From an uncultured Candidatus Saccharibacteria bacterium (GTDB lineage Bacteria; Patescibacteriota; Minisyncoccia; Sungbacterales; HO2-52-23): 55,703 bases of DNA. The notes beneath the pieces were generated by a model, which had not been told where the DNA came from, searched no databases, and saw nothing but the letters and a program-made list of their open reading frames with translations. This document shows positions 1 to 47,832 of the stretch, in pieces; the first letter of the stretch is position 1; every line of letters starts with the position of its first letter. The stretch spans positions 1 through 55,703 of the forward strand of contig CAYPPK010000005.1 in NCBI GenBank assembly GCA_964412615.1. Direction: 5' to 3'. Made by a program: the position numbers and the translations under genes.

Positions 1-521
<521 letters not shown>

Positions 522-550
522 ACAATTTAATTAATTAAATTTTTAAGTGA

Positions 551-734
551 GCGGCATGGTCAAGGCCTGTCGCCGAGAAAAACATTGCGGAGGACGCTGA
601 AGTGGGAACTAATTTAAAAGTTAAAGGTTTAAAGCGGACTCCGCACTGAGCGAAGACGGAATGTATCGTATTTAAAGATTTTATAGCCCGGCGAGCGTCT
701 TTTGGAGGCGATAGGCCGAGGGAACCGTGCCAGC
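551..734. ncRNA. structured ~180-nt element in the groES 5' leader (candidate leader structure or independent small RNA; strand unresolved)
   Basis: There is long-range pairing of 553-560 with 724-731 and of 564-574 with 708-718. An inner helix pairs 589-598 with 694-703. No ORF is present. The element lies between CIRCE and the groES start. Confidence 0.35.
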
Positions 735-742
735 GAACGATT

Positions 743-769
743 TTAGCACTCTAACGACCTGACTGCTAA
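743..769 (-). promoter_or_regulatory. CIRCE operator (HrcA binding site) of groES-groEL
   Basis: TTAGCACTC-N9-GACTGCTAA differs from the CIRCE consensus TTAGCACTC-N9-GAGTGCTAA at one position. It sits immediately downstream of the -10 box. Confidence 0.85.
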
Positions 770-771
770 CC

Positions 772-799
772 ATTATATGTAACTGCCGAATAGTGTCAA
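772..799 (-). promoter_or_regulatory. sigma-70 type promoter of groES-groEL
   Basis: The minus strand reads TTGACA (794-799), a 16-nt spacer, then TATAAT (772-777). Confidence 0.8.
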
Positions 800-812
800 G
801 AGGTAACAAAAA

Positions 813-836
813 GCCGCTGGGTTTGCCCCAGGCGGC
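813..836 (-). terminator. intrinsic terminator after ORF 838-1221
   Basis: GC stem gccgctggg/cccaggcggc is followed on the minus strand by TTTTT (plus-strand A run 808-812). It starts right after the TGA stop. Confidence 0.7.
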
Positions 837-837
837 G

Positions 838-1221
838 TCAGGTTTCTATCTCCCGCTTAGCGGAAATGGTCACAGCATTGCCTCCAAATTTAATCGTAAA
901 GCTTAACCCTTTTTCCAGCTTTGCCCAAAGATCGGCAAATTCCGGGCGTATCTTGTGAATCCAGTCTTCTTCCACATAGAAGCCGCCTCCGCTATAACCT
1001 GATAGTATTTGAATTCTGTTGTTAACCGTTGCCTCCTCGTTAAGGGCAGGGCCGACCAGTATCTCTACTCCTAATCCCAAGCTTAGGAAATTGCAGATTA
1101 TCTTAAGCATTTCGTGGCTAAGATTTACATTGCGCCAAAAAATAAAACGCCTTATTTCTTGGTTGATTCCGGAGCTCTTAAAGCCTATGCCGATATCAAA
1201 GATCTCCAGTTGCCGTTCCAT
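838..1221 (-). CDS. hypothetical protein (127 aa)
   Basis: The ORF has AAGGAG at 1228-1233, 6 nt upstream of the ATG, and its own terminator. It lies downstream of uvrA on the same strand. I do not recognise a family. Confidence 0.6.
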   Translation of the reverse strand: MERQLEIFDIGIGFKSSGINQEIRRFIFWRNVNLSHEMLKIICNFLSLGLGVEILVGPALNEEATVNNRIQILSGYSGGGFYVEEDWIHKIRPEFADLWAKLEKGLSFTIKFGGNAVTISAKREIET

Positions 1222-1287
1222 CTCTATCTCCTTGCCTATCTACTGTTTCCAGTATCGCCTCTATGAAATAAAAAGCAACCTAAATTT

Positions 1288-4134
1288 TCAAGATTTTTTA
1301 AGCCAGTCCCCGGTATAAGAGTTTTTTGCCTTCATCAAGGCCTCGGGAGTTCCTTCGGCCACCACTTCTCCACCTTTTTCTCCTCCTTCCGGCCCCAGAT
1401 CAATTATCCAGTCGGCGTTTTTCAACACGTCTAAATTATGCTCAATCACCAGCACGGTGTTGCTTTTGTCCACTAAAGCTCTAAGCACGGTAAGCAATTT
1501 GCGGATATCGTCAAAATGCAAGCCGGTCGTGGGCTCGTCCAGAATATACAAAGTTTTGCCGGTATCGCGGCGCGATAATTCCGTAGCCAGTTTGACTCGC
1601 TGGGCCTCGCCCCCGGATAGAGTCGGGGCCGGCTGACCCAATTTCATATAGCCCAAACCTACCTCGTGCAAAGTTTGCAATTTTGCTTTAATGGGCGGAA
1701 TGTCTTCAAAGAATTTCAGCGCTTCTTCCAACGACATATTCAAAACTTCAGCAATATTTTTACTTTTGTACTCAATTTCCAGCGCTTCCCGATTGTAGCG
1801 CCGGCCCTTGCATTCTTCGCATTCCACATAAACGTCCGGCAAAAAATACATTTCAATTTTCTTTACCCCCTGTCCCTCGCACGCTTCGCATCTGCCTCCT
1901 TTTACATTAAAACTGAATCTTCCCGGCTCGTAACCACGGGCGCGGGCTTCCGGCGTTTTGGCAAAAATACCTCGGATAAAGCCAAAAGCGCCGGTATAGG
2001 TTGCCGGATTGGAGCGCGGCGTGCGGCCGATGGGAGATTGATCCACCACCACGGCTTTATTAATGTTTTCCGTGCCGTCCAGTTTTTGGTGCTTACCGGG
2101 AAAAAGGTGGGCGTTATAAAATTTCACCAGCAGAGCTTTGGCAATAATGTCATTCACCAGCGTAGATTTGCCCGAGCCGGAAACTCCGGAAATGGCCACC
2201 AATTTTTCCAAAGGTATTTTGATTGTAAAATTTTTTAAATTATGTTCAGCCGCTCCTTTGACCGTTAAAAATTTTTGTTTTCTAGCAGAACCGGAATGTT
2301 TTGATTTTATGTTTATGGTTTTTTTGCCGCTTAGATATTGCCCGGTTAAAGAATGAGCTCGGAACAATTTTTCAGGAGTGCCGGCAAAAATAACTTCACC
2401 ACCGTGCTTGCCCGCTCCGGGTCCCAGATCAATTACCCAGTCGGCCTGCCGCATGGTTTCGGCGTCATGTTCCACTACCATGACCGTATTGCCAAGATCC
2501 CGCAGTTCTTTGAGCGTAGCAATCAGGCGCGCATGATCCCGGGGGTGCAAACCTATGGAGGGTTCATCCAAAATATAAATAATGCCGGTCAGGCGGGATC
2601 CGATTTGGGTAGCCAGCCGAATACGTTGGGCTTCTCCTCCGGAAAGCGAGGTAGATTCCCTGGCCAGCGTAAGGTATTCAACACCTACATCGGTTAAAAA
2701 TTTTAAACGCTTGACGATTTCTTTGAGCAAAGGAGACGCTATCTTAAAATCGCTGGCCGATAATTTGATATTTTTTTGCGCCAAGAAATTCTGAAAAAAT
2801 TTTTGCGCGTTTTCGGACGTGCGGTCGGTAACCGAGGCGATATTTTCTTCCCCGATTTTCACGGCCAAAGCTTCAGAGCGCAGTCGTTTTCCTTTGCATG
2901 CCGGGCATACTTTGATGATCATGTATTTTTCAATTTCTGCCCTGGTAAAATCAGAATCGGTTTCTTTCCATCTTCGCTTGAGATTGGGAATTACGCCTTC
3001 AAAGGCGGCCGAGCCGCGCTTTTCCTCTTTTTCGCCGTAAAGAATGAGGTCCCTAACCTGCGCTGATAGCTTCTCGACGGGTGAATTTAAAGAAAATTTA
3101 TATCGGCTGGCCAAATCATCCAAAATCCACCAATACCAGCTTTGCCTTCCCACTCGGTGTGAGGCCGAAGCCCAGGGACGGATAGCGCCTTCCGCGATAG
3201 TAAGACGCTTATTGGGTACTACCAATTCCGGATCAACTTCCAGCGTGGAGCCAAGACCGGTGCAAGTCGGGCAGGCGCCGTAAGGACTATTGAAACTGAA
3301 AATTCTCGGTTCAATTTCCGGCAGGCTGATGTCGCATTCCAGGCAAGCGAAATGCTCGGAATAATTAAGGTCCGCATGTCCGGAGCGAGCGATTATTAAT
3401 AAACCCTTGCCGATTTTTAAGGCGGTTTCCACCGAATCCCGAATCCTCGCCCGTTCAATATCGGCAGAAAGGGCAAAGCGATCCACCACCACTTCAATGG
3501 AGTGTTTTTTATTTTTATCCAAAATTTTTTCAATGGCGTCATCCAGCAGCATCATTTCGCCGTCAACTCGCGAACGAATAAATCCGGCCCTTTTTACTTC
3601 TTCCAGGACGGTCCGGTGCTCTCCTTTTTTCCCGCGGATTAAGGGCGCCAAAATTAAAAGCTCTTCGCTTTTGGGCAATTTGGAAAGGGAATTTACAATA
3701 TGATCCGAAGTTTGCCTGGAAACTGACTGGCCGCAATTGGGACAATGCGGCTTTCCTATGCGGGCAAAAAGAATTCTTAAATAGTCATAAATTTCCGTAA
3801 TTGTGCCCACGGTAGAGCGCGGATTGCGCGAGATGGATTTTTGATCTATAGAAATGGCCGGCGAAAGCCCGTCAATTGACTCTACTTCGGGTTTGTCCTG
3901 AACTCCTAAGAATTGACGGGCATAAGAAGAAAGGGATTCCACAAATCGCCTTTCCGCTTCCGCATAAATAGTATCAAAAGCCAAAGAAGATTTTCCCGAA
4001 CCAGAAAGCCCGGTGATCACCACTAGCTTATTTTTAGGTATATCCAAATCAATATTTTTCAGGTTATGCACCCGAGCGCCGCGGATTTTTATATACTGAC
4101 CTTCGGTTTGTCTTTTCTTCTTCACCATGGCCAT
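1288..4134 (-). CDS. uvrA: excinuclease ABC subunit A
   Basis: Two ABC ATPase modules are present ([26 protein letters not shown] twice) with zinc-finger Cys clusters, about 950 aa. The start is placed at MAMVKKK; the TTG-initiated extension to 4158 is unlikely. Confidence 0.95.
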
Positions 4135-4184
4135 ACATGATATACCCAATTGCAACAAAAATCAATTGCTTACGATAAAAATAA

Positions 4185-4200
4185 CCCGTCTTAAGACGGG
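4185..4200 (-). terminator. hairpin terminator overlapping the stop of ORF 4191-4745
   Basis: cccgtc-ttaa-gacggg is followed on the minus strand by TTATTTTTA. Confidence 0.5.
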
Positions 4201-4745
4201 CTTGGTATTGGTTCTTGAACGGGAGCAAGAAACCTTTTGGCGGCTGAAGCGCCGGCTTCAAGCCATTTCTTTATTTTTGATTTGGCTGGAGGAAGAGGAT
4301 CACAAGCAAGGAAATATTCGAAACAATTGTAAAAAAGAAAATATAGTATATATCCCACCCCGACCAGCGAAAAAACACCCACAGCCAGAAGAGTTAGCGC
4401 AGAAAACGCAAATAAACAACTAATTCGTGATCTCCAATAACTGACCTTGAATGGATTGGAATATCCATTGTTGGCATATTGCGTAACTATTTTTTTTGCT
4501 TTTACATTCAACAACCAGGCCGGAACTATGGAAACAAACATAAAGGTTGGACCTAGTATGACAGCAAAATTGAAACCTAGCAGTAAGGCAAACCACGAAA
4601 AGTATAGAGAAAAACCGAGGAAAGCAAGCACTAAAGATAGCTTGCCAAGCCAGAAACAATCATGTCCGGTAAGTTTTTGCCAACGGTGGCTAAATTTTTC
4701 AAATCCAGCAAGAATTAAGCCATCCAATTTGAACAAACCTTCCAT
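4191..4745 (-). CDS. hypothetical integral membrane protein (about 4 TM segments)
   Basis: It contains hydrophobic segments (LSLVLAFLGFSLYF, ALLLGFNFAVILGPTFMFVSIV, LFAFSALTLLAVGVFSLVGVGYILYF). The start is moved to MEGLFKL (4745) because the longer ORF would overlap the uvrC start. Confidence 0.6.
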   Translation of the reverse strand: MEGLFKLDGLILAGFEKFSHRWQKLTGHDCFWLGKLSLVLAFLGFSLYFSWFALLLGFNFAVILGPTFMFVSIVPAWLLNVKAKKIVTQYANNGYSNPFKVSYWRSRISCLFAFSALTLLAVGVFSLVGVGYILYFLFYNCFEYFLACDPLPPAKSKIKKWLEAGASAAKRFLAPVQEPIPSPS

Positions 4746-4806
4746 GACGGACTCCTTGGTTTGTGAACTATTTAATGTTATACTATGAAAAATCTTTTCC
4801 GTCAAA

Positions 4807-6111
4807 ATGATTTTGCTGCCCAAAAAACTTCCCAATAATCCCGGCGTTTATATTTTCCGAGCAAGGAATGGAGCGCCTATTTATATCGGGAAAGCCGCGA
4901 GTTTAAAAAAACGGCTGGTTTCGTATTGGCGCAAGGACATAAGTTCCAAAGTTAAGCAGATGTTGGAGGAGGCGCAAAGGTTAGAATGGGTTGAAACTGA
5001 ATCCGAGATTGATGCTTTGCTTAAAGAAGCGGAATTCATCAAGGCACATCTTCCTAAATTTAATATTCTCCTGCGGGATGACAAAAATTTCTTTTTCGTG
5101 GGAATTACCAAGGAGAAATTTCCCAGAATATTTCTGACTCACCAGCCCCGCACTTTCTTTATTCATTTCCAGAAAAATGTTCCTAAAATAGATTTTATTG
5201 GGCCGTTTACTAGTGGTTCGTCGCTAAAAATAGTTTTGCGCTTATTGCGTGGCATATTCCCCTACTGCACCTGCCAAGAGAAGCATAAGCGCCCTTGCCT
5301 AAATTCAGAAATCGGAAGGTGCCCGGGTTTTTGCTGCCTAAAAGAAAACAAAGAATCTTCGACGGAACATGTTGCCGAATATCAAAAAAACATAAGAAGT
5401 ATCGTTTCCGTATTAAATGGCAGAAAGAAGAAAATTTTAAAGGAGTTAGAAAGAGAGATGAAGGAGGCGGCTAAAAATCAAGCATTTGAAAAAGCCGCTA
5501 AAATCAGAAATCAAAGGCAAGGATTGGAAAATATCTTTGCCCATGCGGTTCTGAATAATCAGGCCATCCGGCGGCCTTTTAACTGGTCCAAAATCCAAAA
5601 AAATCTTAAGTCGCTTCTGGGAACAAATATCAGGCGAGCTGAAGGCTATGATATATCCAATGTATCCGGAACTGATGCGACTGGCTCCATGGTTGTTTTT
5701 ATTGATGGCCAGCCGGCAAAATCCGAGTATCGGAAATTTAAAATTCGCACGATGCGGCAGCCCAATGATATTGCCATGCACCGGGAAGTTATTCGCCGCC
5801 GCCTTACTCATTCCGAATGGCCATATCCGGATTTAATGCTTATTGACGGCGGCAAAGCACAGCTTAATGCGGCGCTTGCTGCATTGCGGAATTTTCAATT
5901 TTCAATGGCCAATTTTCAAAAGCCGGCTGTCGCGGCTCTTGCCAAACGCGAAGAGGAATTATATTTGCCCAATCGCAGCACTCCTTTGCGACTGGCTTCA
6001 CTTCCACCGGATACCGCTTTTTTCTTCCAACGAATTCGCGATGAATCCCATCGTTTCGCCAAAAAATATCATCATAAGCGGCGCGAAATACTATTCCGTG
6101 GTAAAAATTAA
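4807..6111 (+). CDS. uvrC: excinuclease ABC subunit C, short form lacking the C-terminal (HhH)2 domain
   Basis: It has a GIY-YIG N-terminus (PGVYIFRARNGAPIYIGKA), a Cys-rich segment, a UVR-like helix (AAKNQAFEKAAKIRNQ) and an endonuclease V-like domain (GYDISN...). It ends at 434 aa. Confidence 0.85.
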   Translation: MILLPKKLPNNPGVYIFRARNGAPIYIGKAASLKKRLVSYWRKDISSKVKQMLEEAQRLEWVETESEIDALLKEAEFIKAHLPKFNILLRDDKNFFFVGITKEKFPRIFLTHQPRTFFIHFQKNVPKIDFIGPFTSGSSLKIVLRLLRGIFPYCTCQEKHKRPCLNSEIGRCPGFCCLKENKESSTEHVAEYQKNIRSIVSVLNGRKKKILKELEREMKEAAKNQAFEKAAKIRNQRQGLENIFAHAVLNNQAIRRPFNWSKIQKNLKSLLGTNIRRAEGYDISNVSGTDATGSMVVFIDGQPAKSEYRKFKIRTMRQPNDIAMHREVIRRRLTHSEWPYPDLMLIDGGKAQLNAALAALRNFQFSMANFQKPAVAALAKREEELYLPNRSTPLRLASLPPDTAFFFQRIRDESHRFAKKYHHKRREILFRGKN

Positions 6112-6113
6112 AA

Positions 6114-6137
6114 CCGTCTGGGACGTGCCCAGAACGG
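6114..6137 (-). terminator. hairpin between convergent uvrC and ORF 6142-6579
   Basis: ccgtctggg/cccagaacgg stem; T-rich on the minus-strand side. Confidence 0.5.
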
Positions 6138-6141
6138 CAAA

Positions 6142-6579
6142 CTAAAAAGTGCGAATTATTCCGACATCATCAATAAAAAATGTTTCTACTGGCAAGTCGG
6201 GAAACCATTTCTCAACTAGATCCTTTACTTTGCAATGTTCTTGGAGATGGCATTCCAATTCTAGTTTTCTGTTCTGAAATCTTGCAAAACCTCCAAAATA
6301 AAGGCAATCATGGTGCGTGAACAAGAGCGCTTTTTTTGCTCTATGGGATTTAACCGAGATTTGCATTTGGTGGCGCATGAAATCTCGTATGCCGGGAAAC
6401 TGTGGGGTTGAGAATACGGCAGCACCACCCGCAGCAGTATATTGGTCCAATCTAGTGATATTGAGGCTTCGCATAAATGCTTTGAATGCCTTCCAAAATC
6501 TATCATCTACGCAACGTACTACCACCGCATCCGCTGTATAGCCGTTAAGATCAGCAGGGTGCCGAAAGATGTAGTCCAC
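6142..6579 (-). CDS. beta-carbonic-anhydrase-like small protein, paralog 2 (145 aa)
   Basis: It carries RCVDDRF (C-x-D-x-R) and THHDCLYFGG (H-x-x-C). It has a GTG start with AAGGAG at 6587-6592. It is a clear paralog of ORF 6662-7105. Confidence 0.6.
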   Translation of the reverse strand: MDYIFRHPADLNGYTADAVVVRCVDDRFWKAFKAFMRSLNITRLDQYTAAGGAAVFSTPQFPGIRDFMRHQMQISVKSHRAKKALLFTHHDCLYFGGFARFQNRKLELECHLQEHCKVKDLVEKWFPDLPVETFFIDDVGIIRTF

Positions 6580-6661
6580 CTGTTTTCTCCTTCTCTGTGC
6601 CGCATAATAAAATACCGCAAAAAAATGCGGTTGGCAAGAGGGTAAGCTAATAACAGCTTAT

Positions 6662-7105
6662 TTAAGATATTTTTATTACACCGCCTAAATCAATGAAATA
6701 GCTATCCACCGGCATATCGGGAAATTTTTTTGCAATTACCTTGCGAGCCTTATTATGCTCTGCCTCATGAAAGGCAAATTCTTCTTTTTTGTTCCCGGCA
6801 AAGCGGGAACTGCCGCCGTATGCTCCGCAATCCTGATGGGTAAAAAGAAAAACTCGCGTGGTATGGTGAAGTTTGATTGATTTTTCCAGTTCTCGCAGCA
6901 TAAAACCGCGGTCACTCTCTTTTTCCGGAGAAGCAAACACTTTTGCGCCACCAGCCACAGATTCGGTATCAATGTGGTCAAGTTGTAGATGTTTTATGAA
7001 GCGTTTGAAAGTTTTCCAAAAGCGGTTATCAAAACAGCGAACGGCGAACGCGTCCGCTCCATAGTGATCCGGCTTGGTTTCAAATTTGAAAACGTATTGC
7101 CCCAT
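6662..7105 (-). CDS. beta-carbonic-anhydrase-like small protein, paralog 1 (147 aa)
   Basis: It carries RCFDNRF (C-x-D-x-R) and THQDCGAYGG (H-x-x-C-G). Its ATG lies 2 nt after the atpC stop (TAATTATG), which implies translational coupling. Confidence 0.6.
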   Translation of the reverse strand: MGQYVFKFETKPDHYGADAFAVRCFDNRFWKTFKRFIKHLQLDHIDTESVAGGAKVFASPEKESDRGFMLRELEKSIKLHHTTRVFLFTHQDCGAYGGSSRFAGNKKEEFAFHEAEHNKARKVIAKKFPDMPVDSYFIDLGGVIKIS

Positions 7106-7107
7106 AA

Positions 7108-7347
7108 TTAACTATCGGCCAGTACTACCACCTCGCTCTCCGGCCGCACTTCCAGAAAACCTGACTTTACCGGAATGACGTTGCGCTTTCCCTTTTTTTC
7201 TGTTTCCAGAGCCGGTCCTTTCAGCAAAGTTATTAAGGGCAAATGATTTTCCAGAACCGTAATTTCGCCCATGGCGGTTTTGGCGATAACCTTATCTACT
7301 TCGCCTGCAAAAAGAGTATTTTTAATCGTGTATACAGATAATTTCAT
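7108..7347 (-). CDS. atpC: F1 ATP synthase epsilon subunit, N-terminal beta-sandwich only (79 aa)
   Basis: It sits directly after atpD, and its sequence MKLSVYTIKNTLFAGEVDKVIAKTAMGEITVLENHLPLIT is epsilon-like. The C-terminal helical hairpin is absent. Confidence 0.8.
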   Translation of the reverse strand: MKLSVYTIKNTLFAGEVDKVIAKTAMGEITVLENHLPLITLLKGPALETEKKGKRNVIPVKSGFLEVRPESEVVVLADS

Positions 7348-7356
7348 AACTATTCA

Positions 7357-8730
<1,374 letters not shown>

Positions 8731-8733
8731 CTA

Positions 8734-9657
8734 TTAATTTCCCTCCAGGAATTCTTTGCCGGCCGTGATTTCGGTTAATTCGCGAGTAATGCCTGCTTGC
8801 CGGGCTTTGTTAAAAACTAAGGTCAATTCTGACATTAATTCCCTCGCGTTGTCGGAGGCATTTTTCATGGCAACCATTCGCGCTGAATGCTCGGAGGCAT
8901 TTGATTCCAGAATCAACTGGTGGATGTGCATGCGTAAAAGTTGAGGAACTAAAGCGGTTAAAATTTCTGCCGGTGAAGGTTCAAATTTATATTCGTAGCT
9001 ATATATGTCAGGTATTTTTTGTTCTGCCGGCAGCGAGGAAAATTTTCCGTATTCGGGCAAGATAGACACTACTGCCTCCCGAATACTGGCTGCGCTGGCT
9101 GGCAAAATCTTTTTGGCAACCGCCTCTTGTAATAGAGTAGTGCGAAAATTAGTATAAATAACTTCTACTTCGTCAAATTCGCCGCGTTGAAACCCCTCTA
9201 AGACAGTCTCGGCCACCGATTGGGTTTCGCCGAGAGTTGAATAATCTCCAAATCCCCAAAAACTTTTGGCGACCGGAATATTTCTTCGTTCAAAATAGTC
9301 GCGAGCTTTTTTCCCTACCGTGATGAGTGCAAACGGCTGCTGCTTGAGCCTTAATTCGGCTTTCCGCAAGACATTGGCGTTGAATGCGCCTGCTAATCCT
9401 TTATCCGACGTGATCACCAAAAGTGCAGTTTTTTTAACATCGCGCTTTTGCAGGAGAGGCGGCAAATTTTCTGCGGGTGTCCGCCCCAATAAGTTTTTTA
9501 ATATTTCCAGTGAAGCAACCGCGTAAGGCCGGGCTGCCAGGGCAAACCCTTGCGCCTTGCGCATTTTGGTTGCCGAAACCACCTCCATAGCTTTGGTAAT
9601 TTGGGAAGTATTTTTAACTGATTTTATTCTTTGTTTGATAGCTTTGGTTGATGGCAT
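8734..9657 (-). CDS. atpG: F1 ATP synthase gamma subunit
   Basis: It has the N-terminus IKQRIKSVKNTSQITKAMEVVSATKMRKAQ and the C-terminus NKARQAGITRELTEI. Confidence 0.9.
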   Translation of the reverse strand: MPSTKAIKQRIKSVKNTSQITKAMEVVSATKMRKAQGFALAARPYAVASLEILKNLLGRTPAENLPPLLQKRDVKKTALLVITSDKGLAGAFNANVLRKAELRLKQQPFALITVGKKARDYFERRNIPVAKSFWGFGDYSTLGETQSVAETVLEGFQRGEFDEVEVIYTNFRTTLLQEAVAKKILPASAASIREAVVSILPEYGKFSSLPAEQKIPDIYSYEYKFEPSPAEILTALVPQLLRMHIHQLILESNASEHSARMVAMKNASDNARELMSELTLVFNKARQAGITRELTEITAGKEFLEGN

Positions 9658-9693
9658 AGACCGAAGATAAAAGTAAAAAGATAAAGGATAAAA

Positions 9694-11262
9694 TTATAAT
9701 TTAAAGAATTCGGCCAGAGATTTCTTTAATATTTCTTCCATGTCTGCGCTAAGTTCGCCTGAAGTCCTAATTTTTTCCAGCACGGAATCGGCATATAATT
9801 TTTCCATGTAATCCAGCATCTTTGCGGATTGCTCCCTGACATCCTCTATGGCTGCCTCATCAAAATAACCATTAGTTCCGGCATAGATCAGCACCACTTG
9901 CTTTTCAAAAGGTATAGGCTGAAGTTCAGGCTGCTTAAGAAGCTCGGTAAGTACCCGGCCCCTCTCCAAGCGTTTGCGGGTTGATTCATCCAATTCCGAA
10001 GCAAACTGGGCAAAAGCGGCTAATTCGCGATATTGGGCAAGTTCCAGGCGCAACCTGCCAGCCACTTTTTTCATGGCTTTGGTTTGGGCGGCTGATCCCA
10101 CTCGGGATACTGAAAGTCCCACGTTTACTGCTGGTCTAATGCCCTGAAAGAAAAGCTCCGGCTCTAAATAAATTTGACCATCAGTAATGGAAATAACATT
10201 AGTTGGAATATAAGCGGAAACATCGCCCAACTGGGTTTCAATTATAGGCAAAGCAGTCAGCGATCCTCCCCCGTTTTCTTTATTAAGTTTGGCTGCTCGC
10301 TCCAAAAGCCGGGAATGCAAATAAAAAATATCGCCTGGATAGGCTTCTCGTCCCGGAGGACGGCGCAGCAGCAAAGAAAGTTCCCGATAGGCCCAGGCAT
10401 GCTTGGAAAGGTCATCATAAATTACCAAAGCATCTTTTCCTTGGTGCATAAAATATTCTCCGATAGCGGTGGCGCTGTAAGGCGCCAAATACCACAAGGA
10501 GGCGGGCAGAGAAGCCGGGGCCGAAACAACAATGGTATAATCCATGGCGCCTTGTTCTTTCAAGGTGGCGACAATTTTTGCCACTTTGGATTCTTTTTGC
10601 CCAATCGCCACATAAATACAAATGGGAGTAGCGTAGCGCTTTTCTTTGCCTTGATTAATAATAGTGTCTACGACAATGGAAGTTTTTCCAATCTGGCGAT
10701 CGCCAATAATAAGTTCGCGTTGGCCCCGGCCGATCGGAATCATGGCATCAATGGCTTTAATGCCGGTATGCAAAGGGGTATTAACCGGTTCTCGCATCAC
10801 TACCGTAGGGGCTAGACGCTCGACGGGAAAATAAATTCCTTCATCGGTATCTTTCCCGCCCCTTTGGGGCGAGGCCTCGCCAGCTTTGCGGGCGGAAAAA
10901 ATGGGACCGCGGCCGTCAATTGGGTTGCCTAAGGGATCAACTACTCGCCCAATCAATTCATCTCCGACTCGCAAAGATAGAACTCTGCCGGTGGGTTTTA
11001 CCGTATTCCCCTCCTTAATTTTTAAGTAATCACCCAAAATAATTGCCCCAACCGTATCTTCTTCTAAATTAAAGGCGATTCCAGAAACCTGTCCGCCTTC
11101 AGTTTCAAAATCAAGCATTTCTTGGGAGGCAGCTTCACCTAAACCGTAAATTTTTGCAATGCCGTCCCCTATTTCAAGCACTCGGCCGATTTTTTCGGCC
11201 TTTATTTTGCGCTTAAATCCTTCTATTTCCTGGCGTAAATTTTCTACAATAAAGTCTTTCAT
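9694..11262 (-). CDS. atpA: F1 ATP synthase alpha subunit
   Basis: It has the Walker A motif GDRQIGKT and, at 522 aa, typical alpha sequence. Confidence 0.95.
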
Positions 11263-11283
11263 TTTTGATCAGACACAATTTTA

Positions 11284-11312
11284 ATTATACAAGATGGAGG
11301 CTCTTCCTGCAA
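11284..11312 (-). promoter_or_regulatory. promoter of atpAGDC
   Basis: The minus strand reads TTGCAG (11307-11312), a 17-nt spacer, then TATAAT (11284-11289), just downstream of the dnaJ terminator. Confidence 0.6.
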
Positions 11313-11314
11313 GT

Positions 11315-11345
11315 AAAAAACCGCATAAGCATTGAACTTATCCGG
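11315..11345 (-). terminator. intrinsic terminator after dnaJ
   Basis: On the minus strand, ccggataag-ttcaat-cttatgcgg (one mismatch) is followed by TTTTTT. Confidence 0.65.
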
Positions 11346-11369
11346 CTCTTATTGATCGTCTAAAATTAA

Positions 11370-12470
11370 TTATAATCCTTCTTTTTTAAGCTCTTCAATA
11401 ATTTCCTTTACTTTTTTGCTTGTTTTCCTGGGCAAATCTACTTTAATTTCAATCAGCAAATCTCCCCGTCCGTAGCCGGATGCGCTGAATGCTCCCTTGC
11501 CGCGCAGTTTTAACACATCACCAGGTTGAGTTCCTTCCGGCACCTTAAGCTTAATAATTCCATCCAAAGAATTGATTTCAACCGTGCTGCCTAAAATAGC
11601 CTGCGAAAGCGAGATGGGCAGTTGCATGACTATATCGTCTCCTTGGCGGCTGAAAATTTCGTGCGGAATCACCTGGATTTTTATATACAAATCACCCGGG
11701 GTTCCGCCGTAGAAAGAAGCTTCGCCTTTGCCGGTCATTTTTAGCACCTCGCCATCTTTAACTCCGCGAGGAATGAATATTTCTATATTTTCACTGGCCT
11801 GCACAGCTCCGCGCCCGCGGCATCCTGTGCATAGGATATCCGGCCGCTTGCCGGTGCCGCTGCATTCTTGGCAGGTCGTGACTTGGGTAAAAGAACCCAA
11901 GAAAGTGCGTTGAGTTTTTTGCACATTCCCTCTGCCTTGGCAAGCGGGGCAGGTCTTTTGCTTAGCTCCAGGCTCACCGCCCGATCCTTGGCAGCGCGAG
12001 CAGCGTACTAATTTAGTTATAGTGGCCTCCTGCTTTCCGCCAAAAATTGATTCTGCAAAAGATATGCGAACTTCAAGTTTAATATCCTTGCCTCGGCGTC
12101 CCCTGGTGGTTCTGGCTTTGCCACCTCCACCCATTCCGGCAAAAAAATCTTCAAAAATATCGCTGAAATCAAAGTCGCCTTGACCCATGTTGCCAAAATC
12201 AAACCGAAATCCGCCCGGCCATTCAAATCCGCCTTGCTGAAAGCCGCCCTGAAATCCGGAACCCTCAAATACTTGGCCAAATTGATCGTATTGAGAACGC
12301 TTTCGATCATCTGCCAAGATTTGGTAAGCCTCGTTTATTTCCTTAAAACGCTGTTCATCCCCGCCTTTATCTGGATGATATTTATGTGCCAGAGCGCGAT
12401 AGGCTTTTTTTATTTCTTCTTTAGTCGCATTGCGAGCGACTCCTAAAATTTTATAGTAGTCTTTGGGCAT
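11370..12470 (-). CDS. dnaJ: chaperone DnaJ
   Basis: It has a J domain with HPD (YHPDKGG), a Gly/Phe-rich linker and four CxxCxGxG zinc motifs. Confidence 0.95.
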
Positions 12471-12478
12471 TGGAAATG

Positions 12479-13255
12479 CTAAAGAGTGAACCTTTCAATT
12501 TCTATTTGTAACTTCTCTTTAGTCACTATTTTACTAAAAATCATGAATTTAAGCAAGAGAAAAACGAAAATTAGCGTTAGATAATAGATAGGAACCGTGA
12601 AAGCCTTGAAGGCAAAGAAAAAAATTAGAGCCGAAGCCAAAGGGAGAAAACTCCGGTAAGGCCCTAAAATATATTGCAATTCCGTTACCATCGCTTCATA
12701 AAAATCATCGGCATTAAATTGTAAGGCTTCCCCGGTCAGATTTTGCGAAACTTGATTAAAAGCAAAATTCACTGCCGGGCGCGGCAACAACCCATAGATA
12801 GCCAGCTCTTCATCCACGCTCACCAAATAAAAACTTGTCACTACCAAAGCGATGGCCGTGAAATAAAGGGGCAGTCCGGTGCGGGCAATTTTAGAAAGGC
12901 TAAAACCGATAGAAAGCAAATGCTCTTGCCGAATGCGGTGAACGGCAAAACCGACAATAAACAGATTCGCGATTAATATGGTAAGTATAGTTCTGGTGGC
13001 TTCCAGAAAGAAAAAAGGGATTGCTATACCAGCCACAAGCAAAGGATAAACCAATTTGGAATTGCGGATAAAAATGGCCGCCAGGACAAAAAATCCGCCA
13101 GCCATAATTAATCCGGCTACGGGAGCAATCAGACTGTAGTCACTAAAATCTCCGGCGACGATCAACGGCACGACTCCCCGCCAAAGCCAAAGTACCAGCA
13201 CGGTTACGCCGGCGGCTAAAACACCTATTATTAATTCTTTAGGAGAAAATTTCAC
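12479..13255 (-). CDS. hypothetical polytopic membrane protein embedded between dnaK and dnaJ
   Basis: The 258-aa ORF is strongly hydrophobic. Its GTG start abuts the dnaK stop. Confidence 0.6.
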
Positions 13256-15145
13256 TTAAGAAGAATTTTCTTCGTCAGGTTTTCGCTCCTGGTTATCTTG
13301 AGGATTTGGATTATTATCCGGACCGGTTTGGCTGTTGGTTCCCGCTTGTTTGTATAATACCTCGCCTATTTTTTGCAGAGAAGTGGATAACTCTTGTGAA
13401 GCTCGCTTAATTGTTTCCGGATCGTTGCCATCTTTGACCTCTTTGAGAGATTTTATTTTTTCTTCAACTTCTTTTTTTACTTCCTCGCTGACTTTGTCCC
13501 CGGCATCGCGCACTGCTTTTTCGGCGGTATAAACCATGGTATCAGCCATATTGCGGCTATCTGCTAATTCACGTTTTTTACGGTCTTCTTCGGCGTGCAG
13601 TCCCGCGTCTTTTTTCATACGTTCTATTTCTTCCTTGGAAAGGGAAGTAGAAGCTTCAATGCGCACCGATTGCTCCTTGCCGGTTGCTTTATCTTTGGCT
13701 TTGACCGAAAGCACGCCGTTGGCGTCCAAGTCAAAAGTTACTTCTACCTGCGGCAGGCCGCGGGGCGAAGGTGGAATTCCGTCCAGAATAAAACGGGCCA
13801 GGGTTTTATTGTCCCCCGCCATTTCCCGCTCTCCCTGCAAAACATGGATCTCTACCGAGGTTTGGTTGTCTGCCGCTGTGGAAAAAATTTGGGATTTGGC
13901 CGTCGGGACAGTGGTATTTTTTTCAATAATTCTGGTCATCACCCCGCCCAAAGTCTCAATGCCGAGGGACAACGGAATAACGTCCAAAAGCAAAATATCC
14001 TTTACTTCGCCCTGCAAGATGCCGGCTTGCACGGCAGCCCCGTCCGCCACTACTTCATCGGGATTTATGCTGCGGTTTGGTTCTTTGCCAAAAAGTTCCT
14101 TAACCGCGTTGATGATAGCAGGCATCCTGGTTTGGCCGCCTACTAAAATAATTTCATCAATATCACTAAGCTGAAAGCCGGAATCTTTGACTACCTGTCT
14201 GGTGATTTCAATGGAGCGGTCAATCATGTCCCGTACCAATTCCTCCAGTTTAGCTCGCGCCATGCGCATTACTAAATGTTTCGGTCCGGAAGCATCGGAA
14301 GTAATAAAAGGCAAATTTATCTCAGTTTCCGGAGTGGTTGAAAGTTCATGTTTGGCGCGCTCAGCTGCTTCTTTCAAGCGTTGTAGAGCCAAAGTATCTC
14401 GGGAAAGATCAATTCCCTGCTCTTTTTTATATTCTTCGGTGATCCATCTAATGATGTGTTGATCAAAATCGTCTCCCCCCAGATGGGTATCGCCTCCAAC
14501 CGCCTTTACTTCAATGGTATCTCCGGTAACCTCCAAGACCGAAAGATCAAAAGTTCCGCCGCCAAAGTCGTAAACCACTATTTGCTCGTCTTTCTTTTTA
14601 TTAAAGCCATAAGCCAAAGCGGCAGCCGTAGGTTCATTCAAGATGCGGCGCACTTTCAAGCCGGCAATTTCACCGGCCGCTTGAGTGGCTTTTCTTTGCG
14701 AATCGTCAAAGTACGCCGGCACGGTAATAACCGCTTCGGTTATTTTTTGGCCCAGCTTTTCTTCCGCGTCCTGCTTTAGTTTCTGCAAAACCATCGCCGA
14801 GACTTCTTCCGGTCTTACCCAATTGTCAGCCAGTTTTATCTCCACCCCGCCGTTTTGGGCTTGGCGCATTTCATAAGGGAGCCAGGATTTATCGCGCTGA
14901 ACTTCCGGATCGGTAAATTTGCGGCCGATTAAGCGCTTGATAGAAAAAAGAGTGTTCTTGGGGTTAGTTACGGCTTGGCGCTTAGCTAGCAGCCCCGCCA
15001 GTCGGTCTCCGGACTTGGAAACAGCCACCATGGAGGGGGTAGTTCTGGCTCCTTCTTTATTTTCAACAATTTTGGGTTCGCTTCCTTCAATAACTGCCAT
15101 GGCGGAATTAGTAGTACCCAAATCTATGCCTAAAATTTTGCTCAT
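13256..15145 (-). CDS. dnaK: chaperone DnaK (Hsp70)
   Basis: It has GIDLGTTNS, DFGGGTFD and EEIERMKKDA, is 629 aa, and has a P/N/D-rich tail. Confidence 0.97.
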   Translation of the reverse strand: MSKILGIDLGTTNSAMAVIEGSEPKIVENKEGARTTPSMVAVSKSGDRLAGLLAKRQAVTNPKNTLFSIKRLIGRKFTDPEVQRDKSWLPYEMRQAQNGGVEIKLADNWVRPEEVSAMVLQKLKQDAEEKLGQKITEAVITVPAYFDDSQRKATQAAGEIAGLKVRRILNEPTAAALAYGFNKKKDEQIVVYDFGGGTFDLSVLEVTGDTIEVKAVGGDTHLGGDDFDQHIIRWITEEYKKEQGIDLSRDTLALQRLKEAAERAKHELSTTPETEINLPFITSDASGPKHLVMRMARAKLEELVRDMIDRSIEITRQVVKDSGFQLSDIDEIILVGGQTRMPAIINAVKELFGKEPNRSINPDEVVADGAAVQAGILQGEVKDILLLDVIPLSLGIETLGGVMTRIIEKNTTVPTAKSQIFSTAADNQTSVEIHVLQGEREMAGDNKTLARFILDGIPPSPRGLPQVEVTFDLDANGVLSVKAKDKATGKEQSVRIEASTSLSKEEIERMKKDAGLHAEEDRKKRELADSRNMADTMVYTAEKAVRDAGDKVSEEVKKEVEEKIKSLKEVKDGNDPETIKRASQELSTSLQKIGEVLYKQAGTNSQTGPDNNPNPQDNQERKPDEENSS

Positions 15146-15152
15146 AATTTAT

Positions 15153-15180
15153 TTGACTTAATTTTATTTTATATTATAAT
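15153..15180 (+). promoter_or_regulatory. promoter of the antisense small membrane ORF
   Basis: TTGACT (15153-15158), a 16-nt spacer, then TATAAT (15175-15180). Confidence 0.65.
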
Positions 15181-15205
15181 TTCTACTAGATCCAAGGAGA
15201 CTGCG

Positions 15206-15505
15206 ATGCTGGAAAACGCTGCCGGAACAATTTTTCTTACTGTCGTATCGCTGATTGTGGCTGTAATTATTTTTCGCGGCACTTCTTATCACAAAGTTCT
15301 TCCGCCCATTTTTTTGATTGCCGCGATTATGGTAATTGTTACCCTGGTTATGGTCGTACTGAAAGTCTATCAAATCTGTTTGGTTAAGTTTCTTTCCGCC
15401 CTACTATTTCTGGGCGGGGCAAGCTGGCTGATTATCAGAATCCGCACCATCCTTCGCGAAAATCGCCAAGATCCTCGCAGCGGCTGGATAGACGCCTCTC
15501 GTTAA
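15206..15505 (+). CDS. small membrane protein (99 aa, about 3 TM) antisense within the heat-shock operon
   Basis: It has AAGGAG at 15194-15199, 6 nt before the ATG, a consensus promoter upstream, and hydrophobic segments (IFLTVVSLIVAVIIF, PPIFLIAAIMVIVTLVMVVL, LSALLFLGGASWLII). Confidence 0.6.
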   Translation: MLENAAGTIFLTVVSLIVAVIIFRGTSYHKVLPPIFLIAAIMVIVTLVMVVLKVYQICLVKFLSALLFLGGASWLIIRIRTILRENRQDPRSGWIDASR

Positions 15506-15521
15506 ATCGGGAGGCAGTTTT

Positions 15522-16097
15522 TTATTTTTTGCTTTTTGCCAGCCGCACTCGCACGGGTCTTAAAACTTTTCCCTTCAAAAAATATCCTTTCTGCACTTCT
15601 TCGGCAATTGATCCCTCCGGCAGATCCGTCTCAATTTCTCCGATAGCTTCATGCTTTTCCGGGTCAAATTGATCCCCTACCTCCACCTTTATTTGTTCTA
15701 ACCCCCGTTTGCGCAAAATGTCTTCAAATTGGGAGCGGATTAAAAGAATGCCTTTTTCCAGCGCGGGATCCCGCCCGCCTGCCGCTGGCCTAGACTCGCC
15801 CTTGAAATGAAATTCAAGGGCGGCAAAACTATCCAGTACCGGCATTATTTCTTGGACAATCCCCGCGGTGATAAATCGAGCCATATCCTCCAGCCGTTTG
15901 CCTTCCTCATTTTTATAATTGATATGATCGGCTTTTGCTCTCTGCCAGCCGGCTAAATAATCCTGGCGCTCGGCATCACATTTCCTTAACTCCTCTTTCA
16001 ATTGTTTAATTTTTTTCTGGGCGTCGGGCAAAGCAGCATTGCTATCTTCATCGGCTATCATTTCTAAATCGTCATTTGTTTTGTCTTCTTCGTCCAT
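15522..16097 (-). CDS. grpE: nucleotide exchange factor GrpE
   Basis: It has a coiled-coil N-terminus and a C-terminus FDPEKHEAIGE...VQKGYFLKGKVLRPVRV typical of GrpE. Confidence 0.9.
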   Translation of the reverse strand: MDEEDKTNDDLEMIADEDSNAALPDAQKKIKQLKEELRKCDAERQDYLAGWQRAKADHINYKNEEGKRLEDMARFITAGIVQEIMPVLDSFAALEFHFKGESRPAAGGRDPALEKGILLIRSQFEDILRKRGLEQIKVEVGDQFDPEKHEAIGEIETDLPEGSIAEEVQKGYFLKGKVLRPVRVRLAKSKK

Positions 16098-16104
16098 AAA
16101 TAAG

Positions 16105-16818
16105 TTATTTATCCGATTGATTTTGTATTTTTTTTAAACTCCGCACTAAAGCTTTATGCCGGTTATAATCCGTGCGCTTAGGACTAATCAAAGTTACAAA
16201 CCCGCTAAAACCTTCCGGGTGCTGCCAAGAAGAAAAAATCATAGAGCATTCGGCCGCTTCTTTCAAAGGATTTTCCTGGCCGATAAAAATTCTGCCAGAT
16301 TCGGAATTATTTTCGGCAATATCCCACAGTCTCTCGTCCAAGATATCCAATAAGCGGCCCAAGGCGCGAGCATTGGCTGGTTCATAAAATTCAGGTTCTT
16401 CCATCAGGTGGGAAAAGCCGGTTTCGTAAAGCAGATCATCTTCAAACATCCCGGCCACTGCAAAAGTCCGGGAAATTGCCGAAACAGTTTTGCTGAATTC
16501 GCGGATAAAATCTTCCATCTCATCTATGGCGAATACTTCCTGCAGCAGTTTTTCGTCGTGCTTGTGCAAAAAATCATTTTCCAGTAAATTATCAACAAAA
16601 AACCGGTAGCCTTTATCGGTTGGTATGCGCCCGGCTGAAGTATGCGGCTGAGTAAGCAGCCCCAATTCATCTAAGGCCAGCATTTCGTTTCTGATGGTCG
16701 CTGAACTTAAATCTCCTGGCAGAAGTTTGGCCAATTCTTGGGAAGCGATGGGACGAGCAGTGCGTACGAATTCCTGTACGGTGGCAAAAAGAATGGATTT
16801 TTGGCGATCTTTCAACAT
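16105..16818 (-). CDS. hrcA: heat-inducible transcription repressor HrcA (short form)
   Basis: The N-terminal winged helix (LKDRQKSILFATVQEFVRTARPIASQELAK...ATIRNEMLALDELGLL) is HrcA-like. It is the first gene of hrcA-grpE-dnaK, and CIRCE lies upstream. Confidence 0.85.
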   Translation of the reverse strand: MLKDRQKSILFATVQEFVRTARPIASQELAKLLPGDLSSATIRNEMLALDELGLLTQPHTSAGRIPTDKGYRFFVDNLLENDFLHKHDEKLLQEVFAIDEMEDFIREFSKTVSAISRTFAVAGMFEDDLLYETGFSHLMEEPEFYEPANARALGRLLDILDERLWDIAENNSESGRIFIGQENPLKEAAECSMIFSSWQHPEGFSGFVTLISPKRTDYNRHKALVRSLKKIQNQSDK

Positions 16819-46581: not shown

Positions 46582-47730
46582 CTATGCTTTTATTGCTTGG
46601 GAAACGGTTTTTACCAGGCGCCGATCAAACATTCCCGGAACTATGCTTTGGGGGCCGGGATGGACCACCAACCCGGCGATGGCATGTGCGGCTTTTCTTT
46701 TCATTTTATCTGTAATTTGCCTTACTTGGTTATCTAGAGCTCCCCGAAAAACTCCGGGGAAAACTTGGGAATTATTCAATTGGTTCGGGAAATCGCTTCT
46801 TCCGGTTGCCGCAACCTTGGCGCCTGCTTTAAGAGCAACATCCGGCATAATTTCCGGCAGAGGATTGGCGAGGGCAAAAACAATAGCGTCTTTGGACATC
46901 TGGCGAATCATTTTTTCAGAAACCAAATTGGGGCCGGAGACGCCAATAAAGACATCGGCTCCTTTCAGGGCGTCTTCCAAATTTCCTTTTTTCTTTCCCC
47001 GATTGGTGATTTTTGCCAAAAGCCTTTTCTCTTGTTTTAGCCCCGGCCTGCCTTTATAAATAATTCCCTCTCGGTCGGTTACCAAGATATTTTTCCCTCC
47101 CTCCTGCAAAATTATTTTTACAATAGCCGTCCCGGCCGCGCCTGCTCCGCTGATTGCAATTTTTACTTTAGAAATGTTTTTTCTTACGACTTTTAGGGAA
47201 TTTAATAATCCGGCCAGGACAATAATGGCAGTTCCATGCTGGTCATCGTGCATAACCGGTATGGCAAGCTCTTTTTTGAGCCGTTCTTCAATTTCAAAAC
47301 AGCGGGGGGCTGAAATATCTTCCAGATTTATTCCCCCGAATCCCGGAGCGATGGCTTTTACTATTTTGATAATTTCCTCGCTGTCTTGGGTGGCCAGCAC
47401 CAGAGGAACAGCGTCTATATCGGCGAATTTTTTAAACAAAAGGCACTTCCCCTCCATGACCGGCAAGGCGCCTTCGGGTCCGATATTTCCTAGTCCCAGT
47501 ACTGCCGATCCGTCCGAAACCACCGCCACGCTGTTTCCTTTCATGGTATATTCTCTTGTTTGGCTTTTATTTTTGGCCAAAAAAGAGCTTACTGCTCCAA
47601 CTCCGGGCGTATAAATCAGACTTAAATCTTGCATATTCCGGACGGGAACTTTGCTCGCAATGGAAAATTTTCCCCTTGCTTTTTTGTGCAAAACCAAAGC
47701 CCTGTCCCCCACTGATATTTTTTTTGTCAT
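46582..47730 (-). CDS. NAD(P)-dependent malic enzyme (short form)
   Basis: It has LSLIYTPGVG, VVSDGSAVLGLGNIG, FGGINLEDI and GAGAAG. The start is set at MTKKISV (47730) because the annotated extension overlaps tRNA-Glu. Confidence 0.88.
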   Translation of the reverse strand: MTKKISVGDRALVLHKKARGKFSIASKVPVRNMQDLSLIYTPGVGAVSSFLAKNKSQTREYTMKGNSVAVVSDGSAVLGLGNIGPEGALPVMEGKCLLFKKFADIDAVPLVLATQDSEEIIKIVKAIAPGFGGINLEDISAPRCFEIEERLKKELAIPVMHDDQHGTAIIVLAGLLNSLKVVRKNISKVKIAISGAGAAGTAIVKIILQEGGKNILVTDREGIIYKGRPGLKQEKRLLAKITNRGKKKGNLEDALKGADVFIGVSGPNLVSEKMIRQMSKDAIVFALANPLPEIMPDVALKAGAKVAATGRSDFPNQLNNSQVFPGVFRGALDNQVRQITDKMKRKAAHAIAGLVVHPGPQSIVPGMFDRRLVKTVSQAIKA

Positions 47731-47759
47731 AAGGTTATTACCCGCCCAAGTTTTGTCCA

Positions 47760-47832
47760 CGCTCCCACCGGGATTCGAACCCGGGTTACTGGAATGAGAA
47801 TCCAGCGTCCTAGGCCTCTAGACGATAGGAGC
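47760..47832 (-). tRNA. tRNA-Glu (anticodon CUC)
   Basis: The minus strand reads GCTCCTATCGTCTAGAGGCCTAGGACGCTGGATTCTCATTCCAGTAACCCGGGTTCGAATCCCGGTGGGAGCG. It has a Glu-type D-arm and anticodon loop TTCTCAT. Confidence 0.88.

Follow-up and report, generated by a model that had tools for sequence, protein, structure and literature searches.

What are two small proteins with the zinc-ligand signature of a carbonic anhydrase doing at the end of an ATPase gene cluster? The question is raised by a stretch of 55,703 nt (contig CAYPPK010000005.1, assembly GCA_964412615.1; hereafter the window) from an uncultured Candidatus Saccharibacteria bacterium that GTDB places in Patescibacteriota, Sungbacterales, where a tandem pair of genes, which we call copy 1 and copy 2, follows the F1 genes atpA, atpG, atpD and atpC. 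Taken as proteins, the two are ordinary, in that both are additions to a family already on record, Pfam PF20393 (Pro_CA_2, "putative carbonic anhydrase"); the conserved linkage of that family to atpC, together with two fusions to transporter or ATPase proteins, is a useful and testable lead. Overall, we favor a reading, to which we give a probability of roughly 0.55, in which the two proteins are cytoplasmic zinc enzymes of CO2 and bicarbonate that act with the F-type ATPase.

An earlier note on this DNA, the original prediction, described a tandem pair of proteins of about 145 aa at the end of the F1 operon, and the two open reading frames (ORFs) prove to encode 147 and 145 aa, after atpA-G-D-C. 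Both contain the predicted CxDxR motif, as RCFDNRF in copy 1 (Cys24, codon 7036-7034) and RCVDDRF in copy 2 (Cys23, 6513-6511), and both contain HxxC, as THQDCGAYGG (His90 and Cys93, 6838-6827) and THHDCLYFGG (His89 and Cys92, 6315-6304), with a Cys-to-His spacing of 66 residues in copy 1 and copy 2 alike and the sequence AGGA lying between the motifs of each, where an A-G-G strand had been claimed. The candidate active-site residues are thus C24-x-D26-x-R28 and H90-x-x-C93-G94 in copy 1, and C23-x-D25-x-R27 and H89-x-x-C92-L93 in copy 2. The paralogy of the pair, put at a third to 40%, measures 42% identity over 142 residues (BLASTP E 4e-44). Copy 1 directly abuts atpC: the atpC stop TAA (7110-7108) is followed by TT and the copy 1 ATG, reading 'TAATTATG', a gap of 2 nt with no Shine-Dalgarno sequence ahead of copy 1. 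Copy 2 has the preceding hairpin, the AAGGAG of its own (6592-6587), the GTG start and the Leu in place of Gly after HxxC that had been ascribed to it. The spacer between the copies is 82 nt long and contains the terminator-like hairpin ACCGCAUUUUUUUGCGGU with a U-rich tail (6631-6614); this hairpin is weakly supported, with a fold z-score of -1.6, and the terminator scan returned 4 terminator-like sites against 2.4 expected. The strand (minus) is the sole detail that this description of the two genes had left out, and all else in it is confirmed.

The original prediction could assign the proteins to no named family, yet both pass the PF20393 gathering cut-off of 30 bits (copy 1, 44.8 bits, E 1.8e-11; copy 2, 42 bits, E 1.3e-10), each covering profile positions 6-118 of 125; no NCBIfam model matches either copy. 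A search of 5.8 billion proteins returned 144 relatives of copy 1 at 53-77% identity, and the PF20393 domain is present in 120 of 120 among the matches listed. Those with a named source, again among the matches listed, are all Patescibacteria (Sungbacteria, Paceibacterota, Parcubacteria), with the proviso that all of the relatives derive from assembled metagenomes, whose taxon labels may be imprecise; a few already carry a 'carbonic anhydrase' label from JGI and NCBI. The family as a whole is large, comprising 2025 clusters at 50% identity in an exhaustive profile search (E <= 0.001) and present in at least 559 genomes in a scan of one genome per species. Across 133 divergent representatives the motif residues are conserved at 96-99% (C 129, D 129, R 128, H 131 and C 132), and three further positions are held family-wide, D46 (132/133), G52 (133/133) and H80 (133/133); equivalents of all eight are present in both window copies. 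Because both proteins match PF20393, and because the C, D, R, H and C residues are invariant in 120 homologues, the motif signature is not a matter of chance. Within the wider family, P0393-P0399 (306-313 aa) have an N-terminal Pro_CA_2 domain that also touches PF00484, the classical beta-carbonic anhydrase family, followed by some 150 uncharacterised residues.

The relation to the beta class of carbonic anhydrases (beta-CAs) suggested by the motifs is also seen in predicted structure and in profile comparison. AlphaFold2 models of both copies (predicted local distance difference test, pLDDT, 97.4 for copy 1 and 95.9 for copy 2) have the alpha/beta fold of beta-CAs. For copy 1 the first 44 Foldseek matches in the PDB are beta-CAs or the CS2 hydrolase of beta-CA fold (best E 4e-5, probability 1.0, template modelling (TM) score 0.45-0.63), led by the Cab-type enzymes 3las, 1g5c and 1ylk, and copy 2 gives the same picture, with beta-CAs on top. 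In hhalign, the profile of the 133 representatives aligns at a probability of 72% (E 3e-5, 117 columns) with a set of nine classical beta-CAs of E. coli and plasmid origin, and it does so in a register that places C24, D26, R28, H90, C93 and G94 on C42, D44, R46, H98, C101 and G102 of E. coli Can, with D25 and R27 of copy 2 likewise matched to D44 and R46. This register agrees with the claim that the order and spacing of the motifs are those of the beta-CA Cys/His/Cys ligands and Asp-Arg dyad. The same alignment places D46 on the acidic residue of the classical PG(E/D)xF motif, and His80 in the place of an invariant Leu. Two relatives, P0375 (26.6 bits) and P0386 (32 bits), exceed the PF00484 cut-off of 25.7 as well as matching PF20393, so that the two families are joined by intermediate sequences. 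The alignment spans Can residues 23-144 only; at 147 aa against 220 aa, the window protein has the two thirds of beta-CA length that had been claimed for it, and is without the N-terminal arm and the C-terminal subdomain. Together, these data support a view of the two copies as a minimal offshoot (about 120-150 aa) of the beta-CA fold that keeps the Cys-His-Cys site and the Asp-Arg dyad.

Whether the place beside atpC means anything depends on how often it recurs. Our neighbourhood survey took in 28 distinct Patescibacteria loci including the window, 58 mostly acidobacterial loci and 3 Nitrospira loci. In 25 of the 28 Patescibacteria loci, spread over many lineages of that phylum, Pro_CA_2 is tied to atp genes. 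Conservation of the atpC-adjacent position in related genomes was one of the checks that the original prediction had proposed, and it came out in its favour, as did those of structure, profile and residue conservation. In the commonest form, found in 20, a short atpC of 79-103 aa is immediately followed by Pro_CA_2, the two being separated by -8 to +232 nt; about half of these junctions overlap or span no more than 14 nt, which implies co-translation. The linked proteins are 41-66% identical to copy 1, and the genes downstream of them vary by locus (PPIase, DUF1003, PRTase, metK and uvrC, among others). One of the 20, L022, has an atpC-Pro_CA_2 pair with an 8-nt overlap that is flanked by rplI and metK and stands away from atpA, atpG and atpD. 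Three more loci (L103, L105, L107) have one ORF between Pro_CA_2 and atpC, one from Daviesbacteria (L104) has Pro_CA_2 head-to-head with a full-length atpC (141 aa) 4 kb from atpD, and a last one (L102), in which Pro_CA_2 is fused to another atp-operon gene ahead of atpB, completes the 25. In the literature searched, of which coverage was incomplete, there is no description of a carbonic anhydrase in an atp operon or of linkage to atpC, and no paper on PF20393 or Pro_CA_2, or on carbonic anhydrase in Patescibacteria; a connection of CO2 and bicarbonate to the ATPase through atpC adjacency is apparently undescribed.

Two independent fusions, one to SulP-STAS in Nitrospira and one to an AtpZ-like protein on a contig from the Candidate Phyla Radiation (CPR, the Patescibacteria), tie Pro_CA_2 to ion-translocating machinery. 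Three Nitrospira assemblies, including one complete chromosome, encode a SulP (PF00916)-STAS protein of 700-724 aa with Pro_CA_2 as its C-terminus, and P0125 is a fragment of the same architecture. Classical beta-CAs adjoin SulP genes in four plasmids, and SulP-carbonic anhydrase fusions were taken as an argument for bicarbonate transport by Felce and Saier (2004), as cited in PMC6458275. No SulP gene was found among the Pfam-scanned genes of the window, which are most of its large ORFs. As a separate observation, a neighbour-joining tree without support values nests the Nitrospira domains inside Patescibacteria sequences, which hints at transfer between phyla. The second fusion, P0256 in L102, joins Pro_CA_2 to ATPase_gene1 (PF09527, two hydrophobic helices) in a 213-aa protein; atpB begins at the base immediately after its end, and carA lies divergent upstream.

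Pairs of these genes, too, are not peculiar to the window. Among relatives whose contigs reach far enough, the nearest, L084, likewise carries two Pro_CA_2 genes downstream of atpC, and in L011 a second Pro_CA_2 gene lies 2.3 kb downstream. In L103, L106 and L107 the ORF directly upstream of Pro_CA_2 encodes a conserved protein of some 180 residues that matches no Pfam family; this protein aligns with Pro_CA_2 and keeps the Cys, Asp, His and Cys (CxDGD ... HxPCG) with a variable Arg, and with weak profile support it is probably, as judged from its sequence, a further and more divergent beta-CA-like paralogue that forms another type of tandem pair. Copy 2 sits on the longest branch of the neighbour-joining tree, near the genes of L012 and L013, which have no atp linkage, and the same unsupported tree does not pair it with the second copy of L084. 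The L012 and L013 genes are the closest relatives of copy 2 (50-54% identity), lie away from atp genes, and are followed by a gene for a VIT1-family metal transporter with a ferritin-like N-terminal part. Beta-CAs act as dimers with the active site at the interface. Since the fold works as a dimer and pairs recur, hetero-oligomers of the two paralogues are conceivable, and by this analogy the recurrent pairs (the window, L084, and L103, L106 and L107) are compatible with heterodimers.

How, then, might such proteins serve an ATPase? We propose that the copies are cytoplasmic zinc enzymes that would interconvert CO2 and HCO3- plus H+, with zinc bound by Cys24, His90 and Cys93. In beta-CAs the Asp-Arg dyad orients the zinc-bound water, and CO2 hydration in these proteins would proceed with Asp26 and Arg28 in that role. 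Expression would go together with that of the F1 genes: termination-reinitiation would couple copy 1 to atpC, and copy 2 would be reached by read-through of the weak hairpin or would use signals of its own. Their partner in function would be the F-type ATPase, most specifically its epsilon gene, and in these non-respiring fermenters the ATPase would run in the direction of an ATP-driven proton pump. A carbonic anhydrase made stoichiometrically with epsilon could then hold CO2, HCO3- and H+ at equilibrium beside the pump, supplying and buffering its protons. It might also provide bicarbonate, which belongs to the oxyanions, a class able to lift the inhibition of ATP hydrolysis by Mg-ADP, and the paralogues may pair as a heterodimer. 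Published work offers a physiological setting: CPR bacteria have no respiratory chain, and ATP hydrolysis by their ATPase, run in reverse, has been proposed to drive proton pumping (PMC8080830); oxyanions relieve Mg-ADP inhibition of ATP hydrolysis, and more strongly where the epsilon C-terminal domain is absent (PMC8039183); and bicarbonate is among the oxyanions reported to reverse IF1 inhibition of the mitochondrial F1-ATPase (PMC3603449).

At the same time, a number of observations weigh against this proposal. On the side of chemistry, neither window protein matches PF00484 even at E <= 10. A narrow profile of 120 sequences is insignificant against Can alone and against the nine beta-CAs (hhalign probability 2-6%), only the broader profile of 133 representatives having produced the in-register alignment; a PDB sequence search with copy 1 gave no match, and one with a 24-sequence profile gave a single insignificant match (E 0.5), on the HxDCG motif of Rv1284. 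The Foldseek superpositions have a high root-mean-square deviation, 5-10 A, for both copies. Cys24, His90 and Cys93 are a putative zinc site deduced from the alignment register, with their clustering in three dimensions presumed. In copy 2 the Leu after HxxC replaces a near-invariant Gly (Gly in 119 and Leu in 2 of the 133 representatives), and its 'DCLYFG' occurs in no other relative examined. The literature searched reports no activity for any protein of PF20393. On the side of linkage, three of the 28 CPR loci (L012, L013, L106) have Pro_CA_2 away from atp genes, and no atp gene lies within 6 kb in any of the 58 mostly acidobacterial or the 3 Nitrospira loci, so that atp linkage is confined to Patescibacteria; since the linkage is missing in so many loci, the enzyme would not depend on the ATPase for its function. 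The fusion to ATPase_gene1 is known from a single 2.5-kb contig and may be a frameshift or assembly artefact. Finally, genes for the a, c, b and delta subunits are absent from the whole 55.7-kb window (tblastn with the subunits of a relative), which makes an intact F1Fo enzyme in this organism an assumption. In the acidobacterial loci themselves neighbourhoods are not conserved, with no gene family in more than 9 loci; the recurring neighbours, to judge by eye, resemble housekeeping genes (adenylosuccinate synthetase-like, nucleoside-diphosphate-kinase-like and ferredoxin-like) and belong to one related subgroup.

Of the alternatives, the one that survives best, improbable as we hold it to be, is that Pro_CA_2 is a non-enzymatic accessory or regulatory partner of F1 or epsilon, a sensor of zinc and thiols, of redox state or of CO2 and bicarbonate, that replaces the control exerted by the epsilon C-terminal domain. 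In a version we judge equally doubtful, a carbonic anhydrase-derived module, possibly a heterodimer, would bind or act on F1 and epsilon so as to make ATP hydrolysis or pumping responsive to CO2 or bicarbonate. The appeal of the idea lies in atpC being the tightest and most persistent neighbour, even where it is detached from atpA, atpG and atpD (L022) or read head-to-head (L104), and in the fusion of one relative, P0256, to an atp-operon membrane protein. The epsilon protein itself points the same way: the PF02823 domain spans the whole window product, which is the beta-sandwich domain alone, its helical, regulatory C-terminal domain missing, and epsilon is similarly cut in most linked loci and is 70-109 aa long in 78 of 78 database relatives of the window atpC. 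However, epsilon is short as well in loci where atpC is not followed by Pro_CA_2 (L087, L088, L090), and Pro_CA_2 is linked to a full-length epsilon as well (146 aa in L103, 141 aa in L104), so that the two are not strictly coupled, and for the same reason we rejected Pro_CA_2 as a general stand-in for the missing epsilon domain. The conservation of the full set of catalytic residues argues for catalysis, and the occurrence of Pro_CA_2 without atp neighbours in Acidobacteriota and Nitrospira likewise speaks against a dedicated ATPase regulator.

A second alternative, also unlikely in our estimation, grants the beta-CA fold and the metal site and assigns them another substrate, with COS or CS2 being hydrolysed or some other small molecule hydrated, in which case the atp linkage would not reflect CO2/H+ chemistry. 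The pocket Gln of Can, Q33, corresponds to Y15 in copy 1 and to Tyr or His in 118 of the 133 representatives; this replacement, and the family's own invariant D46, G52 and H80, mean that the substrate could differ, which is itself a further point against our proposal. A CS2 hydrolase (3ten/3teo) is among the Foldseek matches of both copies, and the segments with which classical beta-CAs form the pocket across their dimer are missing from PF20393. Against this, the SulP-STAS fusion has its counterpart in classical beta-CAs, which are known to pair with SulP transporters of bicarbonate, and no sulfur-metabolism genes recur nearby in the loci examined. The weakest alternative is inherited synteny without function, a small gene having come to rest behind the last gene of a strongly expressed operon in an ancestor of these Patescibacteria and never having been displaced, for which one may cite the restriction of the linkage to one phylum, the three unlinked CPR loci and the unrelated genes found inside other Patescibacteria atp operons (Rce1-like protease, NYN nuclease, PemK toxin, CYTH and 23S_rRNA_IVP), but which is made improbable by the deep divergence of the linked proteins amid changing downstream genes, by the survival of the link through operon break-up, by its return in another form at the opposite, 5' end of the operon and by the co-translation that the close junctions imply.

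We return to the enzymatic, ATPase-associated reading and to the window itself, whose gene order on the minus strand is hrcA-grpE-dnaK-(258-aa ORF)-dnaJ-atpA-atpG-atpD-atpC-copy 1-copy 2. The upstream neighbour of atpA is dnaJ, not Fo or delta genes; the F1 genes of the window stand apart from the other ATP synthase genes, and relatives L001 and L003 have a full atpBEFHAGDC operon. The 258-aa ORF between dnaK and dnaJ has no Pfam match, and it is not grpE, since grpE sits upstream of dnaK. Elsewhere in the window lies a gene for malic enzyme, a CO2-releasing decarboxylase and thus a possible internal source of CO2 for the putative carbonic anhydrases. Coordinates of these features and of those in related loci are collected below.

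Positions of the Pro_CA_2 genes, their neighbours and related features, in the window and in comparison loci
Locus	Feature	Position	Strand	Evidence or remark
Window	Pro_CA_2 copy 1, 147 aa, ATG start	6662..7105	-	PF20393; AlphaFold2 model; Foldseek; register with Can
Window	Copy 1 CxDxR motif (putative: first zinc-ligand Cys and Asp-Arg dyad)	7022..7036	-
Window	Copy 1 HxxC motif (putative second and third zinc ligands)	6827..6838	-
Window	Terminator-like hairpin (6631-6614) and U-rich tail, between copies	6604..6631	-	weak statistics, z -1.6
Window	AAGGAG Shine-Dalgarno, 7 nt ahead of copy 2 GTG	6587..6592	-
Window	Pro_CA_2 copy 2, 145 aa, GTG start, divergent paralogue	6142..6579	-	PF20393; AlphaFold2 model; Foldseek
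Window	Terminator-like hairpin 3' of copy 2, in gap before convergent uvrC	6117..6133	-	terminator scan
Window	uvrC, convergent to copy 2	4807-6111	+	ORF list
Window	atpC, short epsilon, 79 aa	7108..7347	-	PF02823 spans residues 1-79, E 7e-19
Window	atpD (F1 beta)	7357..8724	-	76-88% identity to beta subunits of related loci
Window	atpG (F1 gamma)	8734..9657	-	ORF list; comparison with related loci
Window	atpA (F1 alpha), first gene of F1-only cluster	9694..11262	-	ORF; 62-78% identity to alpha subunits of related loci
Window	hrcA to atpC region	7108-16818	-
Window	258-aa ORF	12479-13255	-
Window	Malic enzyme gene	46582-47760	-
L022	atpC-Pro_CA_2 pair	5257-7904
L102	P0256, Pro_CA_2-ATPase_gene1 fusion, and adjoining genes	1367-2476
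L012	Close relative of copy 2, with VIT1-family gene	5868-7340
L013	Close relative of copy 2, with VIT1-family gene	1333-2768
L016	SulP-STAS-Pro_CA_2 fusion	2244-4352		Nitrospira
L020	SulP-STAS-Pro_CA_2 fusion	4291-6465		Nitrospira
L023	SulP-STAS-Pro_CA_2 fusion	2-1804		Nitrospira
L103	~180-aa protein upstream of Pro_CA_2	5383-5943
L106	~180-aa protein upstream of Pro_CA_2	4260-4802
L107	~180-aa protein upstream of Pro_CA_2	4332-4880
L003	Unrelated insertion in atp operon	5017-5550
L088	Unrelated insertion in atp operon	972-1469
L090	Unrelated insertion in atp operon	1723-2106
L105	Unrelated insertion in atp operon	2453-3067
L107	Unrelated insertion in atp operon	3531-3887

What an F-type ATPase does for Patescibacteria that do not respire is still to be settled (PMC8080830), and a carbonic anhydrase-like gene kept at atpC offers a testable idea about it, namely that the proton pump is served by equilibration of CO2, HCO3- and H+. 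A second testable idea is that bicarbonate controls the epsilon-truncated enzyme; a carbonic anhydrase-derived regulatory module of that kind, if true, would be informative about the task of the ATPase where there is no respiratory chain. Members of PF20393 are among the smallest proteins with the full beta-CA catalytic set, and for that reason the family is a good target for defining a minimal carbonic anhydrase. Should activity fail, the finding shrinks to the ordinary annotation of a known Pfam domain.

How the pair compares with what is already known can be told from the nearest system outward. The window proteins are like PF20393 in sequence throughout; the family is a computational entry only, and the atp-operon context is absent from its one-line Pfam description. 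The best structural matches are the small Cab-type beta-CAs, Cab of M. thermoautotrophicum (1g5c), Rv1284 of M. tuberculosis (1ylk) and the S. mutans enzyme (3las), which share with the window proteins the CxDxR ... HxxCG order and the class of ligand spacing. In contrast to them, the window proteins are about 20 residues shorter, only 13-21% identical, without a PF00484 match and changed from Gln to Tyr or His in the pocket, and PF20393 has an invariant Asp46, Gly52 and His80 of its own. Compared with E. coli Can and CynT, the FVHRN of the conserved PGELFVHRN stretch has become AGGAK.

For the pairing with ion-translocating machinery, the closest parallels are the SulP-beta-CA pairs of the Rv3273 type, whose logic the Nitrospira SulP-STAS-Pro_CA_2 fusions follow; the window pair differs in having the ATPase as its proposed partner, in place of an anion transporter. 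The accessory genes atpI and atpZ are, like Pro_CA_2, non-structural genes carried by the atp operon, and AtpZ has a role in ion homeostasis (PMC4453477). The window proteins have their genes at the 3' end of the operon and are soluble and enzyme-like, whereas AtpI and AtpZ are small membrane proteins with genes at its 5' end. Acid-secreting cells of animals assemble a 'transport metabolon' of carbonic anhydrase, proton ATPases and anion exchangers. The logic proposed here would be the same, with a carbonic anhydrase feeding H+ to an ATP-driven pump and HCO3- to a carrier of the SLC26/SulP type, but the animal system uses alpha-class carbonic anhydrases and V- or P-type ATPases and has no operon linkage, and no homology between the two is implied.

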